DNA of 64,000 nt from Escherichia coli (GTDB lineage Bacteria > Pseudomonadota > Gammaproteobacteria > Enterobacterales > Enterobacteriaceae). Shown here piece by piece: positions 3,283-9,821 of this stretch. The notes below the pieces were generated by a model. That model saw only the letters and a list, made by a program, of their open reading frames with translations, ran no database searches and had not been told where the DNA came from. Numbering within the stretch: the first letter of the stretch is position 1; each line of letters begins with the position of its first letter. The stretch is taken from the NCBI RefSeq assembly GCF_044324875.1, contig NZ_CP172185.1; one strand, given 5' to 3'. A program made the position numbers and the translations under genes.

Positions 3283-4571
3283 AAGCGAACCTCCGTCTGT
3301 GCTGTAGCGGTTTCTGCTGACGGGGCAGCCGTTTTACGGGTACTGCTCAGGGTGAAAGCCGATAACACGGTGACCGCAAGGACAATACCGCCCAGAACCA
3401 GATAGGTGTTCTGGAACCCCATGCGGTCATACAGGTGACCTGCAAAGGTTGAGAGGAATATCGCCGCCAGTTGTTTGGAGAACTGAAAGCCAATCAGATA
3501 AATGGTGGCCGACAGCCGGGTATCAAACACGCCGGTGATATACTTGAACGCACCAACCAGCAGGAATGGGACTTCAAGGGCATGCAGCATTTTCAGGATC
3601 ACCACTTCAGTAGCCGTGGTGGCAAAGGCCGACCCTGTGATGCGGATGGTCATAATCAGACCCGCGACAAGCAGTGTGTTTTTGGCACCAATGCGGTTGA
3701 TTATCCAGGGGGAGCAGAACATGATGATGGCATTGCAAATCTCGCCAGCCGTGGTGGCAAAACCAAATGCCCGGATCCCCGCCTGCGGCGTGTCAAAAAA
3801 TGCACGGAAGAACGTGGCAAACTGCTGGTCAAACACGTCATAGACGCAGGCCACCCCAATCATGTAAAGCACGAACATCCACATCTGACGCATACGAAAC
3901 AGACTGAACACCATTCCGGCGGAAATCACGGGCGAGTTGGCACCCAGCGCATTCATGACCATCGCTGTCTGACTGGTTCCGGGACGCGCCAGCGCCACCA
4001 GAAGGACCAGCAGCAATGCGCAGCCGGACCCCATCCAGAATACCAGGGACGGATCCACGTTGAAAAGCAGCCCTGCCGTGGTGGCACACAGCGCCCAGCC
4101 CAGACAGCCGAACATCCGGGCCTTACCGTATTCAAATCCGCTGCTGCGGCTGACACGTTCAATATAGGCTTCGATGGCACCGGCTCCCGCAGAAAAAACG
4201 AAGCCGATAAAAATCCCGCCGCTCAGTGCTCCGGCCCAGATGTTGAACCGCAGCAGCGGCGCAAAAACGTACAGAAAGAACGGTGCAAACAGGACCAGCA
4301 GCAGGCTGATGATCCACATCAGGTGTTTTTTCAGGCCAAGACGGTCTGAGATGACCCCCAGCAGCGGCTGGAAGCTGATGGCAAACAGGGAGAGGCATGA
4401 AAAAACAATCCCGGTATCCGTTTTACTCAGCCCCACAATGTCTGACAGCCAGACGGGCAGAAACGGGAAACAGGTTGCCATGATGAAAAAGTAGAGAAAA
4501 AAGAACAGACCAAATATCCAGAAATCGGGGTTTTTATGAGTACTGACAGTATTCATTATTGTTATCCTCAC
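3279..4571 (-). CDS. rafB: Raffinose permease, LacY-type oligosaccharide:H+ symporter (MFS)
   Basis: 430-aa ORF; N-terminal NPDFWIFGLFFFLYFFIMATCFPFLPVWL and the rest are collinear with LacY; stop overlaps rafD start. Confidence 0.9.
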   Translation of the reverse strand: MRITIMNTVSTHKNPDFWIFGLFFFLYFFIMATCFPFLPVWLSDIVGLSKTDTGIVFSCLSLFAISFQPLLGVISDRLGLKKHLMWIISLLLVLFAPFFLYVFAPLLRFNIWAGALSGGIFIGFVFSAGAGAIEAYIERVSRSSGFEYGKARMFGCLGWALCATTAGLLFNVDPSLVFWMGSGCALLLVLLVALARPGTSQTAMVMNALGANSPVISAGMVFSLFRMRQMWMFVLYMIGVACVYDVFDQQFATFFRAFFDTPQAGIRAFGFATTAGEICNAIIMFCSPWIINRIGAKNTLLVAGLIMTIRITGSAFATTATEVVILKMLHALEVPFLLVGAFKYITGVFDTRLSATIYLIGFQFSKQLAAIFLSTFAGHLYDRMGFQNTYLVLGGIVLAVTVLSAFTLSSTRKTAAPSAETATAQTEVRL

Positions 4572-4610: not shown

Positions 4611-6737
4611 TTATGCCAAACGTTCAAGGGCAATCAGCATGGCGCTTTCCGGATCCAGTACGGGAAGCTGAATACCGGCCTGCGCCAGCCATTCCCCACT
4701 GATGTCGGAGGTCTGGTTCATCCAGCCGGGCAGCCTGCGCATGGTATGCCCGCCTTCACCGACCAGCTGAATATCCGGATGGTCAACAACACGAAGCCGG
4801 TAACGGGCCTGTGGTGCCAGCCCCGGAAAACGTAGAGCACCCGGCAGGGTGTGATCCGGCATGGCAAGCTGGCTCACCAGGAAGAGCGCCTGCGACTGAT
4901 CCGGGCTGACCACCCCCTGCACCTGTGTCGCCGCATCCGGCATATCCACCCGCCATAGGGTGCCCGTGTGGATAAGCTGCCGCCATTCTTTGTAGAGCGA
5001 GGCATAGCGGCGGTAACCGGCGGATTCCTCTTCTCCGGCCGTTACCGGATCCAGCTCCAGTCCCATATGACCGAACAGGGCCGTCAGACCGCGAAAGGCA
5101 ATGCTGTGCTGCCGGAAGGTGGCATGGCAGCGATGATGACCGATGTGTGCCCCCATAACCTCCGGCGGGAAAAAGTAACTCATGCCACGCTGTATGGTGC
5201 AGCGCTCCAGGGCGTCATTGTTGTCAGAAGCCCAGAAGCGGTGCGTGCGGGTCAGAACCTCAAAGTCGATACGTCCACCGCCGGAAGCGCAGGACTCAAA
5301 CTCAACACGGGGAAAACGTTCGCGCAGGAGATCCAGCAGCCGGTAAAACTGACGGGTCTGCGCGTCCGCCGCCGCCCGACCTTCATGCCCGGCCTGGACC
5401 AGCTCGCGGTTCATGTCCCATTTCACATAGTCAACTGGGTGTTCGCCCAGCAGCCATAAACAGCGTTCATAAATGTAAGCAAAGGCCTCAGGAATGTTCA
5501 GGTTGAGAACATACTGATGTCTCCCGGTTGGTTGTGTGTACCCCGGCATTGACAGTACCCAGTCAGGATGGCGGCGAAAGAGGTCAGAGTCCGGGTTAAT
5601 CATTTCCGGTTCCACCCAGATACCGAACTCCATGCCGAGTGATTTCACATGGTTAATCACCGGCATCAGTCCGTCCGGATACTTCTGTTCATCCAGATAC
5701 CAGTCGCCCAGAGCCGCATGGTCATCATTGCGCCCCTTAAACCAGCCGTCGTCGATAATGAAACGTTCAACGCCAAGCGCTGCCGCACGTCCGGCCATCT
5801 GCATGATGTAGTTCGGGTCGTGGTCAAAATAAATACCTTCCCAGGTATTGAGGTGCACCGGACGGGGTTTCTGCTCAGGAAAACGGATGATTTCATCGCG
5901 CAGAAAACGGTGGTACTGCTGACTCATACCATTGAGCCCCTCCGGGGAATAGCTGGCGTACAGCCACGGCGTGTACACGGTCTCATCCTTCTTCAGGGCT
6001 TTTTCTCCGGGCATCCACAGTGCTTCCGCCTGGAGGTAACGCCGTCCGTCAGTTTTGACCTCACATTTCATGCGATGGTTGCCACTCCAGCCCAGATGTA
6101 CGGCCCACACCTCGCCCTGCTGTTCTGAGAAACCGGGGGCACCGGCAATCAGTGCCGGAAAATGCTCATGGGACGTGCGGCCCCGGCGGTTCTCCAGCAC
6201 AAAACCGTCATGTGTGAGACGGACCCTGTGCGGCTGAAACTCACGAGTCCAGCGTCCGTGGAAGGCCATGACTTCCTCTGCCCTTTCAGCCACAGGGAGC
6301 GTGATGGCGAAGCGGTTCACCTGCCAGTCCCCTTCACGGAGGTTCGTCAGGGCATGACGCATCTTCAGCACACCGGACGATGTCAGCACCAGTTCACTGA
6401 CCATGCGCAGACCCGCCACTGCATCCTCACTGGTCAGGGTGAGTGATTCTCCGGCCTGTACCACGCTGATGGTACGGAACACAGGGGACGCATCCAGCCC
6501 GTTGCGGTGTCCCTCCAGCCCCGGCGAGCCAAAAAGTCCCGCGCCGTTTTCGGCCATCAGCGTCAGTGGGGTGTCGGTATCCAGACGACCATTCGCAACC
6601 GGCCTTTCCAGGCTGATACAGTCATCCGGTGAAAAGTGTTTCAGGGTGGATCCCCACCAGACAATCTCTGCATACGGGTGGGTTTTAATAATCAGGTCTG
6701 AGTGGGGACTGGTCAGCCTGCGGTACATCGGTTCCAT
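4611..6737 (-). CDS. rafA: Alpha-galactosidase, glycoside hydrolase family 36
   Basis: 708-aa ORF directly downstream of the LacI-type regulator and operators; length and position match RafA. Confidence 0.9.
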   Translation of the reverse strand: MEPMYRRLTSPHSDLIIKTHPYAEIVWWGSTLKHFSPDDCISLERPVANGRLDTDTPLTLMAENGAGLFGSPGLEGHRNGLDASPVFRTISVVQAGESLTLTSEDAVAGLRMVSELVLTSSGVLKMRHALTNLREGDWQVNRFAITLPVAERAEEVMAFHGRWTREFQPHRVRLTHDGFVLENRRGRTSHEHFPALIAGAPGFSEQQGEVWAVHLGWSGNHRMKCEVKTDGRRYLQAEALWMPGEKALKKDETVYTPWLYASYSPEGLNGMSQQYHRFLRDEIIRFPEQKPRPVHLNTWEGIYFDHDPNYIMQMAGRAAALGVERFIIDDGWFKGRNDDHAALGDWYLDEQKYPDGLMPVINHVKSLGMEFGIWVEPEMINPDSDLFRRHPDWVLSMPGYTQPTGRHQYVLNLNIPEAFAYIYERCLWLLGEHPVDYVKWDMNRELVQAGHEGRAAADAQTRQFYRLLDLLRERFPRVEFESCASGGGRIDFEVLTRTHRFWASDNNDALERCTIQRGMSYFFPPEVMGAHIGHHRCHATFRQHSIAFRGLTALFGHMGLELDPVTAGEEESAGYRRYASLYKEWRQLIHTGTLWRVDMPDAATQVQGVVSPDQSQALFLVSQLAMPDHTLPGALRFPGLAPQARYRLRVVDHPDIQLVGEGGHTMRRLPGWMNQTSDISGEWLAQAGIQLPVLDPESAMLIALERLA

Positions 6738-6772
6738 AAGACATCTCCGTTTTCGGGTATGCCTTACTGTTG

Positions 6773-6811
6773 ATCCGAATCGTTTCGGATAGCAACCGAA
6801 ACGATTCGGAT
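6773..6811 (-). promoter_or_regulatory. raf operator pair (two adjacent ~18-bp palindromes) in rafA promoter region
   Basis: atccgaatcgtttcggat (6773-6790) and aaccgaaacgattcggat (6794-6811) lie between rafR stop and rafA start. Confidence 0.7.
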
Positions 6812-6830
6812 TTGTGAGCGGGATTAAAAA

Positions 6831-7841
6831 TCAGGCGGAGGGAGCAAGCGTTGTCTTGCCAGGATGAAATTCCGGCTGCCAGAGTACTTGTAGCATTTCA
6901 GGTGAAACATTCGTGACCAGCTGGCGTATCATGTCGGCAATCTGACGACCGACGCGATGTCGTGTTGACTGAAGAACTGCAGCCACATCCTGTTCAATAA
7001 TACTGTCCTGCGGCAGACCATCATAAACCACAAGAGAGACGGCATCCTCTCCGGACAGATGACCGGATAACTGCAGCGACATGGCCGCGCCATCACCGAT
7101 CAGGTCACTGTCGGTAATAATGGCCGTCGGGGGAAGCGGAAGTGACATTAACTCAGTCACTGCCTGGAAACCTGAGCGTCGGGTGGGAGAGACCCGGCGT
7201 AGCCAGGTCTCAGGCAGACCATGTTCACTCAGGGCATCGCGCCATCCCTGACGTCGTGCAGTGACATAGGCACGGGAGTTGTCCTCACTCAGCAGGGCAA
7301 TTCGCTGATGGCCCAGGGCAATCAGGTGCTGTGTGGCCTGCCAGGTTCCTGCATGGTTATCAAAGTCAAACCAGGCACAGGGAAGACCGGACGGCACCTG
7401 ACCGAGTGCCAGAAACGGAATACCGGCCTCCTGCAGGTGTGTAAGACGCGGGTCATTATCCATCGTGTGCGCCACGATAAGGGCATCAACCCGGCGGCTT
7501 TCGACCAGACGCATATAGCTGTGGCTGTCAGCCCGTTCATCATCGGCTATCAGCAGTAAGTCAATATCATGGCGGGCCAGTTCCCGGCTGATACAACTGA
7601 CCATATCCACAAACACACTACTGCTGAACAGTACAGCATGTTCAGGGAAGACCAGGCCGACCGCATCGGTTTTACCGGTTTTGAGACGTCTTGCCAGGGT
7701 ATTCGGGCGATAACCACGACGCCGAGCTTCCGCTTCTACACGTGCACGGGTCGAAGCGGAAACGTCCGAAAATCCGCCAAGCGCCCGGCTGACTGTGGTG
7801 ACAGAGATCCCGAGTTCGGCGGCGATAGCCTTGAGTGACAT
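6831..7841 (-). CDS. rafR: LacI-family repressor of the raf operon
   Basis: 336-aa ORF; N-terminal HTH MSLKAIAAELGISVTTVSRALGG typical of LacI/GalR family. Confidence 0.9.
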   Translation of the reverse strand: MSLKAIAAELGISVTTVSRALGGFSDVSASTRARVEAEARRRGYRPNTLARRLKTGKTDAVGLVFPEHAVLFSSSVFVDMVSCISRELARHDIDLLLIADDERADSHSYMRLVESRRVDALIVAHTMDNDPRLTHLQEAGIPFLALGQVPSGLPCAWFDFDNHAGTWQATQHLIALGHQRIALLSEDNSRAYVTARRQGWRDALSEHGLPETWLRRVSPTRRSGFQAVTELMSLPLPPTAIITDSDLIGDGAAMSLQLSGHLSGEDAVSLVVYDGLPQDSIIEQDVAAVLQSTRHRVGRQIADMIRQLVTNVSPEMLQVLWQPEFHPGKTTLAPSA

Positions 7842-8266
7842 ATTTTCTCCTGCGGATAACTGAACAGCCCTGTCCCTGATGCGGGTGATCCGGGCAACAA
7901 ACCTGACAGAGACGCCTGCATAAGTGGTCGCGCTGTACCAGTATGAGCCTCCATCATCCTGATTTGTGTATTAACTTTCAATACCGGAGGACGATTTGAT
8001 TACCGGTTGTTAGCAGGAGTGCGAATATTAGACCGACGGTGGAGATCTAAGACTCAGTGAGCATAGCGATACACTATATTACTGTAATTAAGCCAGTAAA
8101 CTTCCTGTTCACTGGCTTAAACGCTAATGATGTATGCAGTTGAACAAGCTTTTAAACTAATGATTAATTGATATATAGACTGGCCCCCTGAATCTCCAGA
8201 CAATCAATATCACTTAAATAAGTGATAGTCTTAATACTAGTTTTTAGACTAGTCATTGGAGAACAG

Positions 8267-8632
8267 ATGATTGATGTCTTAGGGCCGGAGAAACGCAGAC
8301 GGCGTACCACACAGGAAAAGATCGCAATTGTTCAGCAGAGCTTTGAACCGGGGATGACGGTCTCCCTCGTTGCCCGGCAACATGGTGTAGCAGCCAGCCA
8401 GTTATTTCTCTGGCGTAAGCAATACCAGGAAGGAAGTCTTACTGCTGTCGCCGCCGGAGAACAGGTTGTTCCTGCCTCTGAACTTGCTGCCGCCATGAAG
8501 CAGATTAAAGAACTCCAGCGCCTGCTCGGCAAGAAAACGATGGAAAATGAACTCCTCAAAGAAGCCGTTGAATATGGACGGGCAAAAAAGTGGATAGCGC
8601 ACGCGCCCTTATTGCCCGGGGATGGGGAGTAA
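8267..8632 (+). CDS. insC: IS2 transposase OrfA
   Basis: [56 protein letters not shown]..., 121 aa. Confidence 0.9.
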
Positions 8633-9495
8633 GCTTAGTCAGCCGTTGTCTCCGGGTGTCGCGTGCGCAGTTGCACGTCATTCTCAGACGAACCGATGAC
8701 TGGATGGATGGCCGCCGCAGTCGTCACACTGATGATACGGATGTGCTTCTCCGTATACACCATGTTATCGGAGAGCTGCCAACGTATGGTTATCGTCGGG
8801 TATGGGCGCTGCTTCGCAGACAGGCAGAACTTGATGGTATGCCTGCGATCAATGCCAAACGTGTTTACCGGATCATGCGCCAGAATGCGCTGTTGCTTGA
8901 GCGAAAACCCGCTGTACCGCCATCGAAACGGGCACATACCGGCAGAGTGGCTGTGAAAGAAAGTAATCAGCGATAGTGCTCTGACGGGTTTGAGTTCCGC
9001 TGTGATAACGGAGAAAAACTGCGGGTCACGTTCGCGCTGGACTGCTGTGACCGTGAGGCACTGCACTGGGCGGTCACAACGGGTGGCTTCGACAGTGAAA
9101 CAGTACAGGACGTCATGCTGGGAGCAGTGGAACGCCGCTTTGGCAGCGAGCTTCCGGCGTCTCCAGTGGAGTGGCTGACGGATAATGGTTCATGCTACCG
9201 GGCGAATGAAACACGTCAGTTCGCCAGGATGTTGGGACTTGAACCGAAGAACACGGCAGTGCGGAGTCCGGAGAGTAACGGAATAGCAGAGAGCTTCGTG
9301 AAAACGATAAAGCGTGACTACATAAGTATCATGCCCAAACCAGACGGGTTAACGGCAGCAAAGAACCTTGCAGAGGCGTTCGAGCATTATAACGAATGGC
9401 ATCCGCATAGTGCACTGGGTTATCGCTCGCCACGGGAATATCTACGGCAGCGGGCCAGTAATGGGTTAAGTGATAACAGGTGTCTGGAAATATAG
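8590..9495 (+). pseudogene. insD: IS2 transposase OrfB interrupted by in-frame amber codon (TAG at 8974-8976)
   Basis: Frame reads ...KESNQR-TAG-CSDGFEF...; ORFs 8590-8976 and 9115-9495 are in the same frame; intact IS2 has W (TGG) here as I recall it. Confidence 0.8.
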
Positions 9496-9506
9496 GGGCA
9501 AATCCA

Positions 9507-9794
9507 ATCGTTAGCCATGGCCTCCCTACTCCAGAGATAATATAAAGGGGCGGGCTCAACAGATTTATCTTTACGTCGCTTGCACTGCAAATATTCAGAA
9601 ATTAGTCTATGCAGTTCACCAGTAAAATCAGCCATCAGAGAGGGAATTGCCTTATTCATACCTGGGCAAGGTATTAATTTAAATTGTAATAATTTAATTT
9701 TAGGATGTGTAGCTGCAGCCCGATACAGAGTTGCAAGGACACACTTTTGCCAGAGGACGTTACAGGAAAGCTTAATGTTTGATTCTGTATACAT
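9507..9794 (-). pseudogene. 5' fragment (96 codons) of an unassigned gene truncated by IS2
   Basis: Minus-strand ORF starting at 9794 (MYTESNIKLSCNVLWQKCV...) runs straight into the IS2 right end at 9506. Confidence 0.35.
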
Positions 9795-9821
9795 AATAAA
9801 TCACCTTACAGTTACAATAGG

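Follow-up and report, generated by a model that had tools for sequence, protein, structure and literature searches.

Introduction

IS2 moves by a two-step copy-out/paste-in pathway, through a figure-of-eight and a minicircle, in which the right inverted repeat (IRR) is the donor and the left inverted repeat (IRL) the recipient (PMC3299598, PMC3219604); IRL and IRR are 42 and 41 bp long, respectively (PMC3299598). Target duplications of insertion sequences can be lost through recombination between IS copies or through adjacent deletion, and the IS3-family element IS150 provides documented cases from the Lenski long-term lines, with losses growing stepwise from 14 bp to 49 kb: the element stays, the flank at one end is lost in growing steps and the duplication is erased (PMC11708052). 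Nonsense-inactivated copies, lost duplications, adjacent deletion or IS-IS recombination, and gene conversion between IS are all already well documented. With regard to the neighboring genes, rafRABDY has been described in chromosomal insertions and on plasmids (PMC6392093, PMC12987596), and raf has been linked to poultry-associated Escherichia coli (PMC12987596).

The DNA analyzed in this work (hereafter the window) is a stretch of 64,000 nucleotides of an E. coli chromosome displaying three differences from strain LR-31 over positions 5000-12500, one of them within IS2. It carries an IS2 copy flanked by the raffinose (raf) module on one side and, on the other, by a cryptic integrative island near dgcT. 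We consider it likely that the junction at this copy is a recombinant or deletion product, combined with a dead transposase.

Results

Structure of the IS2 copy

The segment 8176-9506 fitted IS2 in every structural respect, apart from autonomy and the insertion signature (Table 1). The terminal patterns TAGACTGG... (IRL) and ...GGCAAATCCA (IRR) had one exact match each in the 64-kb window (chance expectation 0), this being the single IS2 copy that the terminal-pattern search found there, and imperfect terminal inverted repeats were detected in the element (IRL arm at 8185-8217). Nucleotide identity was 97.9% with IS2A of K-12 (over the 1,040 bp fetched), 99.9% with the same-locus copy in eight E. 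coli chromosomes and 95-99% with IS2 copies in 6,747 E. coli records.

TABLE 1. Features of the IS2 locus and its surroundings (window positions).
Feature	Position	Strand	Remarks
rafR, LacI-family raf regulator	6831..7841	-	last raf-module gene before IS2
Left flank pentamer, atata	8171..8175	.	raf-module homology stops here in every context examined
Complete IS2 (IS3 family), 1,331 bp	8176..9506	+	exact terminal patterns; identity to K-12 IS2A
IRL, left inverted repeat, recipient end	8176..8217	+	raf side; starts TAGACTGGCCCCC
orfA, IS2 InsC/TnpA repressor, intact, 121 aa	8267..8632	+	translation identical to K-12 InsC1; NF006928
A AAA AAG, -1 programmed frameshift motif, intact	8584..8590	+	
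orfB frame, catalytic part of transposase, amber-interrupted	8590..9495	+	NF006918; Pfam rve, rve_3
Amber TAG for Trp (G-to-A at 8975)	8974..8976	+	orfB codon 129 of 301; OrfAB residue 237
Recombinant patch, C-type allele	9325..9961	.	covers the final 182 bp of IS2 and ~455 bp of adjoining flank
IRR, right inverted repeat, donor end (CA-3')	9466..9506	+	island side; ends GGGGCAAATCCA
Right flank pentamer, atcgt	9507..9511	.	in relatives separated from the IS2 end by 601 bp (state A) or 471 bp (state C)
First 96 codons of 188-aa YagK/YfjJ-domain gene, cut by deletion	9507..9794	-	FORC 064 protein

The orfA product scored 238.8 against the NCBIfam profile NF006928 (IS2 repressor TnpA; cut-off 229), and a slip at A AAA AAG gives an OrfAB reading frame of 409 residues. 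When the stop was read as Trp, OrfB reached 709.5 against NF006918 (IS2 transposase TnpB; cut-off 597) and the fusion protein 282.8 against the IS3-family profile NF033516 (cut-off 160), and OrfAB read in the same way matched HTH_Tnp_1, HTH_21, rve (232-335) and rve_3 (324-389) in Pfam. Within the rve match the amber codon is five residues from the start and precedes both the Asp of WCSDGF and the remainder of the domain, so that the DDE (rve) catalytic domain is interrupted and the copy is not an autonomous element. In the sister allele of strain AR_0085, OrfB differed from that of the window by T65M and the amber codon, with no other changes. The amber is a real, derived G-to-A transition and the sole disabling lesion of this copy; no damage was seen in OrfA, in either end or in the frameshift motif.

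A copy of this kind would be expected to make the OrfA repressor plus a DNA-binding stub of 236 residues, but no DDE transposase, and it would need OrfAB from another IS2 in order to move. Because it keeps both ends, the frameshift signal and OrfA, such mobilization by another IS2 seems plausible.

Several of these observations bear on an earlier note made from the letters of the window. Its claims of full-length IS2 ends and of an amber codon replacing a Trp at the start of the catalytic region agreed with our data: both terminal patterns were exact, at 8176 and 9506, and the Trp lies just before the first catalytic Asp and is encoded by TGG in K-12 IS2A and in 11 other aligned IS2 copies, the reference element thus lacking the TAG. 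Its further statement that the copy is immobile unless complemented appears reasonable. The note had also pointed to a missing target-site duplication. This absence is real, as the flanking pentamers are atata and atcgt instead of the 5-bp repeat that marks a primary insertion, and no abutting direct repeat of at least 4 bp appeared after shifting either IS2 end by up to 8 bp. Other IS2 copies within the same island module do carry 5-bp duplications.

Genomic context

To the left of IS2 the raf module comprised rafR, an alpha-galactosidase, a permease and an invertase, with the porin just beyond the window edge. The right side was occupied by a cryptic P4/CP4-like island (Gp2/YagK-YfjJ paralogues, a TOTE-primase fragment, DUF3987 and an integrase), followed by IS3, dgcT and then the core genes pga, efe, put, rut and tor. 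No tRNA gene marking an island attachment site was found in positions 1-25000 of the window. A composite IS2-raf-IS2 transposon was considered and discarded, as the far end of raf in LR-31 had no BLAST similarity to IS2; that end contained IS1414-like and other IS3-family fragments.

The island gene next to IRR was truncated. Its product was identical in 95 of 96 residues to the full-length FORC 064 protein, the 3' half of the gene was lost, and the open reading frame ran on into IRR up to 9420. In annotation terms, the element is an IS2 pseudogene with intact ends and OrfA, and the frame at 9420-9794 is a truncated YagK/YfjJ gene.

Junctions of the same locus in related genomes

The IRL junction, ...aattgatata/TAGACTGG (a slash marks the junction here and below), was constant and was paired with five different IRR junctions among the relatives. 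In state A (AR_0085, STEC384, STEC379, and GPEC60-12-649) the IRR junction was CCA/agtactattatcg (flank agtac), and IRR was followed by 601 bp that are absent from the window (L006 3508-4108). State C, with CCA/atggcgcag (flank atggc), was present in APEC O2-211 and many others; its IRR junction, which also occurred with non-raf left contexts in FORC 064 and STECUZB006, is apparently carried by roughly 190 genomes. State B, with CCA/atcgttagcc, was found in the window and nine genomes; state B', with CCA/ctccctactcc (flank ctccc), in MS 119-7, 15 bp farther on than B. The fifth junction, with right flank ttcat and the same left junction, came from a 354-kb record filed as a plasmid. The amber codon was found in state A copies (STEC384 and STEC379) as well as in state B copies.

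Compared with state A, state B was missing 601 bp, and compared with state C 471 bp (L022 4081-4551 in a C-type allele, with a 2-bp "at" ambiguity at the endpoint); B' was missing 15 bp more. Each loss started at the IRR tip, within 0-2 bp, and variation of the junctions was confined to the IRR end. Thus, one IS junction was conserved, the other was variable and the loss proceeded from the end of the IS. The reciprocal product of a deletion at this place would be a lost circle.

In hundreds of raf-less genomes the island read ...cccagagg/agtactattatcg uninterrupted, which indicated that agtac is ancestral island DNA. State A itself had no target duplication. In turn, no chromosome or plasmid examined had raf homology beyond ...gatata/, and homology to the island began at the other IS2 end, indicating that IS2 is the seam between raf and the island; the raf flank was 99.8-99.95% identical in all the strains compared. 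IS-free joints at gatata/ were found in a Salmonella plasmid and in a chromosomal form, gatata/ctattatcg, shared by 20 genomes.

Searches for the presumed original insertions in genomes, plasmids and metagenome contigs yielded no IS2/atata continuation, no gaggagtac/IS2 and no ...ggcatcgt/IS2. None of 5,426 complete E. coli genomes contained an IS2 resident in the island and flanked by an agtac duplication (...cccagaggagtac/IS2), and an IS2 at atcgt (...ggagtggNatcgt/IS2) was absent from the same 5,426 genomes and from the metagenome scan, the nearest IS2 insertion being that of RS571, 5 bp away. The plasmid search combining the IS2 right end, atata and the IS-free Salmonella plasmid sequence (L014), taken as the native raf-side continuation, gave no junction-spanning match, and with the IS2 right end plus atata no copy carrying a matching raf-side duplication was found among plasmids.

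Mosaic structure of the element and its right flank

Compared with FORC 064 and STECUZB006, the window presented a single mismatch across 9325-9961 and then 14 mismatches in 9962-10345. Conversely, compared with the state A right flank, 23 mismatches were counted in 9507-9911 and none in 9912-10889, so that the state A flank diverged by 6% along its first 405 bp, with no differences in the ~980 bp that follow. Within IS2, the window corresponded to the amber allele of state A (STEC384) except at 8781, 9204 and the cluster 9414/9435/9444; three of these five differences fell in the last 7% of the element, for which a simple binomial, our own estimate, gives ~0.003 if differences were evenly spread. 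The window is thus a state-A-type locus with a C-type patch, the left crossover lying inside IS2, because the last 182 bp of the element and the next ~455 bp carry an allele unlike the rest of the locus.

Exchange was also visible in other genomes. TUM9803 kept the B junction and right end but contained a foreign 8910-9328 segment with TGG, and MS 119-7 presented a K-12-type 3' half, also with TGG. An unrelated locus of FDAARGOS_1303 carried an IS2 that was flanked by a perfect ctaac duplication and combined a divergent left half with a window-type right half including the amber; this hybrid copy indicated that the amber segment has moved between IS2 copies, either by conversion or by mobilization in trans.

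Two simple origins of state B were discarded. A 601-bp deletion of the sequenced state A is ruled out by the 6% divergence of the first 405 bp of flank. A deletion between the 9-bp repeats ATCGTTAGC, one of which lies 9 bp past the IS2 end in state A and the other at the B junction, would have left agtactatt beside IS2, and this was absent.

Discussion

The arrangement probably arose as follows. A long-resident and now non-autonomous IS2 forms the seam between raf (rafR side, IRL) and the P4/CP4-like island (IRR). It may have acted as portable homology, with crossovers inside IS2 that linked the IRL half on the raf side with IRR halves from the island, as suggested by the constant IRL and variable IRR junctions, the raf-less IRR junctions and the mosaic IS2. 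The lineage of the window would then have lost the DNA abutting IRR (471 bp with respect to the best-matching allele, 601 bp with respect to state A), a loss that would have truncated the YagK/YfjJ gene and left atcgt beside IRR. The 5-bp duplication is missing, in this account, because the right-hand neighbor is no longer the DNA into which IS2 inserted. Separately, a G-to-A change turned Trp237 of OrfAB into the amber. The order of events that we infer, namely state A, then the amber, then state B, rests on parsimony and could be rearranged by recombination between strains.

The interpretation in the earlier note is right for the most part, with one refinement. It had described raf as joined to unrelated cargo, and IS2 is indeed where raf and island DNA meet; in relatives, however, this IS2 already links the two with either of two different right-hand junctions (states A and C), so the atcgt junction was not made by the joining event. 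It had also proposed a recombination or deletion junction, and IRR-adjacent loss and a mosaic IS2 were indeed found, although the junction arose as a local loss in an already joined arrangement.

The loss itself could have taken place through an adjacent deletion initiated at the IS2 end or through recombination with a transient second IS2 in the same orientation nearby. Both routes give identical products that the DNA sequence does not distinguish, and we regard the choice between them as roughly even. In the former, IRR alone, or the IRR-IRL junction of a transient IS2 dimer, would have been directed by the transposase to attack a nearby site. We hold this route, tentatively, as a candidate. 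All the losses in states A, C, B, and B' begin at the IRR tip, which is the end cleaved by the IS2 transposase (PMC3299598); the stepwise losses at IS150 provide a precedent within the family (PMC11708052), and a 12-bp adjacent loss was found at another island IS2 (strain 64.1). However, copies of state A and of state B alike carry the amber, and its occurrence in state A suggests that it predates the deletion; the resident transposase was thus probably already dead, and a deletion driven by transposase would need OrfAB in trans. Furthermore, the allele patch that extends from the IS2 interior into the flank shows that homologous exchange operated here too.

The second route is the one favored in the earlier note, and we regard it as a candidate only slightly less likely than the first. 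A second IS2 in direct orientation would have inserted at atcgt, 471 or 601 bp downstream, and RecA-dependent recombination would have deleted the interval together with one copy. The region is a hot region for IS2: four independent insertions in the same orientation were found in other genomes at distances of up to about 260 bp from the B junction, three of them with 5-bp duplications (tagcc, gaatg, and aaagc) and one with a 12-bp adjacent loss, and that of RS571 (duplication tagcc) is separated from the B junction by just 5 bp. In addition, a new junction is often accompanied by a new right-part allele, as in MS 119-7, where the K-12-type 3' half accompanies a junction 15 bp farther on, and in the window, whose right end carries three clustered differences from state A. 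Nevertheless, neither an IS2 at atcgt with a duplication nor a two-copy intermediate was present in the 5,426 complete E. coli genomes or the metagenome scan, and no reciprocal product or second IS2 copy was found in E. coli genomes or metagenome contigs. The four nested junctions would moreover require four separate second insertions, and the right end of the window equals the resident C-type right end, which would be expected from a plain end-initiated deletion as well.

The constant ...gatata/ boundary is not accounted for by the sequence of crossovers and losses that we favor. In different replicons the phosphodiester after ...aattgatata, at the rafR-distal end, is abutted by IS2, an IS2-like element of ~70% identity, a hybrid of these or an IS-free joint, and the base is the same every time. 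In the case of IS911, one element is reported to land on the inverted-repeat tip of another. A more speculative reading, which we regard as improbable, is that gatata/ is a specifically targeted position, with end-targeted insertion or replacement among IS2-group elements, and that the amber copy is kept as a trans-repressor. If this were true, raf would be a module carried by whichever IS2-group element occupies the gatata/ position, and OrfA and the 236-residue OrfAB stub of the amber copy could serve as a trans-repressor of IS2.

A simple transposition, the 5-bp duplication having been erased by point mutation or never made, is very hard to reconcile with the data. Nothing specific speaks for it, beyond the fact that IS copies without recognizable duplications are common in genomes (PMC11708052). 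On the contrary, atata and atcgt differ at three of five positions while the raf flank is more than 99.8% conserved, and atcgt lies 471-601 bp from the IS2 end in relatives, the intervening DNA being ordinary island sequence. An insertion without duplication would imply an IS-free ...aattgatata/atcgttagccatgg, but the IS-free relative reads gatata/ctattatcg... and not gatata/atcgt. Weaker still, and practically negligible, is the idea that the amber is a sequencing or assembly artefact in a really functional copy, since it amounts to one base of difference from otherwise intact sister alleles but the same 91-mer around it matched exactly in 11 of 5,426 complete E. coli genomes, which are independent assemblies from different laboratories covering two junction states and a second locus, and PGAP flagged an "internal stop" in LR-31, STEC384, and FDAARGOS_1303.

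Returning to the reading of crossovers inside a resident IS2 followed by loss at IRR, the locus provides a clean natural example in which four nested IRR junctions are paired with a single fixed IRL junction and a crossover within the IS can be seen. It shows an IS as the seam that lets the raf sugar-utilization module move between plasmids and chromosomal islands; beyond such bookkeeping its importance is little.

Comparison with described elements

Among the closest counterparts of the window copy is the state A sister copy (AR_0085, STEC384, and STEC379), which shares with it the IRL junction and the divergent IS2 allele and, in STEC384 and STEC379, the amber; it keeps the 601 bp of island DNA at IRR, and displays G-A-G vs. 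A-G-A in the window at 9414/9435/9444. With IS2A of K-12 (insC1/insD1) the window copy has in common the length of 1,331 bp, the IRL and IRR ends, the 121-aa OrfA and the A6G frameshift motif, whereas it differs by the amber at OrfB codon 129, by the absence of a 5-bp target duplication and by a divergent 3' half (~6% at the nucleotide level over 8910-9480, with 6-7 amino-acid substitutions).

In terms of the copy-out/paste-in pathway of IS2, the window copy keeps both ends needed for minicircles but cannot itself provide OrfAB; step I cleaves no end other than IRR, and it is there that all the variation at the locus is found. With respect to IS150, the window series was reconstructed from natural isolates instead of being followed in real time, homologous exchange between IS2 alleles overlays it and the resident transposase gene is dead. 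The locus is nevertheless like that case in its nested A, C, B, and B' junctions with a fixed IRL junction.

IS2 alleles and the IS-free locus

The amber codon of the window's IS2 was also found in a copy from FDAARGOS_1303, which lies in a prophage-like region near yfdR/glaH, at a locus unrelated to that of the window, and is flanked by a perfect duplication, ctaac. This copy combines a divergent left half with a right half of the window type (8826-9336), and this half-and-half structure indicates that the defective segment has been exchanged between IS2 copies. In STEC384/379, the amber IS2 at the same locus as in the window was itself interrupted in its left part by IS3, an example of IS-in-IS nesting.

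In those state C genomes that were examined (IRR junction atggc), a second altered allele occupied the raf junction. It lacks 243 bp internally, between two TTGCCCGG repeats (L002 and L010); the deletion joins OrfA codons 1-37 in frame to OrfB, with an annotated product of a 328-aa transposase, and removes both the frameshift site and the leucine-zipper region.

An IS-free form of the locus, gatata/ctattatcg, was present in 23CRST022 and in 19 other genomes. It corresponds to state A (IRR junction agtac) without IS2 and without 'agta'; the overlap is 2 bp, 'ta'. The ancestral island sequence, gaggagtactatt, has an 'ag' that is absent here, so this form looks like the product of a near-precise IS2 loss and not like an ancestral empty site.

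Features of the window and of the comparison loci (L-numbers, each in its own coordinates); window positions of the island genes (9823-11478) were converted from locus L001
Feature	Locus	Position	Source or remark
IS2 with internal deletion	L002	4677-5765	APEC O2-211
IS2 with internal deletion	L010	5677-6765	PN43 record
IS-free form	L003	4660-4690	23CRST022
IS2 with the window's amber	L021	3247-4577	FDAARGOS_1303
IS3 within amber IS2	L020	2176-3436	STEC384; equivalent to window ~8365
Inovirus Gp2-family pseudogene, internal stop	window	9823-10386	
Truncated fragment with a frameshift, annotated as TOTE conflict-system archaeo-eukaryotic primase	window	10450-10775	
Gp2-type gene, intact	window	10915-11478	
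Far side of raf module, past raf porin	L013	4158-9851	LR-31; outside window
IS2-like element/hybrid	L011	5677-7013	plasmid pS84-1
IS2-like element	L012	6492-7755	plasmid p135-1
IS2-like/IS2 hybrid	L023	2747-4080	STECUZB006
K-12-type IS2	L012	5039-6369	plasmid p135-1; inside truncated rafR

Surroundings of the junction

The island that adjoins IS2 on the right is built as a mosaic of paralogous modules and has decayed. Window positions 9507-9800, together with the homologous stretch in comparison loci L016-L019, form a hot region for IS2: in unrelated strains, four independent insertions, all in one orientation, were located within ~260 bp of this YagK/YfjJ module, three of them with duplications (tagcc, gaatg, and aaagc) and the fourth without duplication and with a 12-bp adjacent loss.

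A 9-bp direct repeat, ATCGTTAGC, was observed in the state A locus L006 at 3517-3525 and 4110-4118 (the second copy being window 9508-9516), with AGGAGT a few bases upstream of each copy. In state A, one copy lies 9 bp past the end of IS2; the other is situated at the window's junction (state B). Deletion between these repeats was rejected as the origin of the B joint, as it would yield a joint different from the one observed.

At the end of the raf module that faces away from IS2, LR-31 presented piled-up fragments of IS66, of IS3-family elements and of an IS1414-like transposase with an EAST1 remnant, as well as group II intron reverse-transcriptase genes, followed by a type I restriction-modification system; no IS2 was found in this stretch.

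An IS2-like element at the raf-side junction

On IncI/IncK plasmids the raf-side junction, gatata/T, was occupied at exactly the same position by an IS2-like element of the IS3 family. Strain 135 harbored both the chromosomal amber IS2 and a raf cluster on plasmid p135-1, where a complete IS2-like element stands at the gatata junction, ~120 bp past a K-12-type IS2 with an apparent duplication, ccgtt.

At least 413 E. coli genomes carried the IS2-like element, whose PGAP name is only generic. Hybrids with IS2 also occurred: in pS84-1 the final ~125 bp are IS2, and in STECUZB006 the initial ~140 bp are IS2-like and the remainder IS2. Compared with IS2, the IS2-like element displayed ~70% identity, and its IRL is TGAGCTGGCCCCCTGAAACACC.
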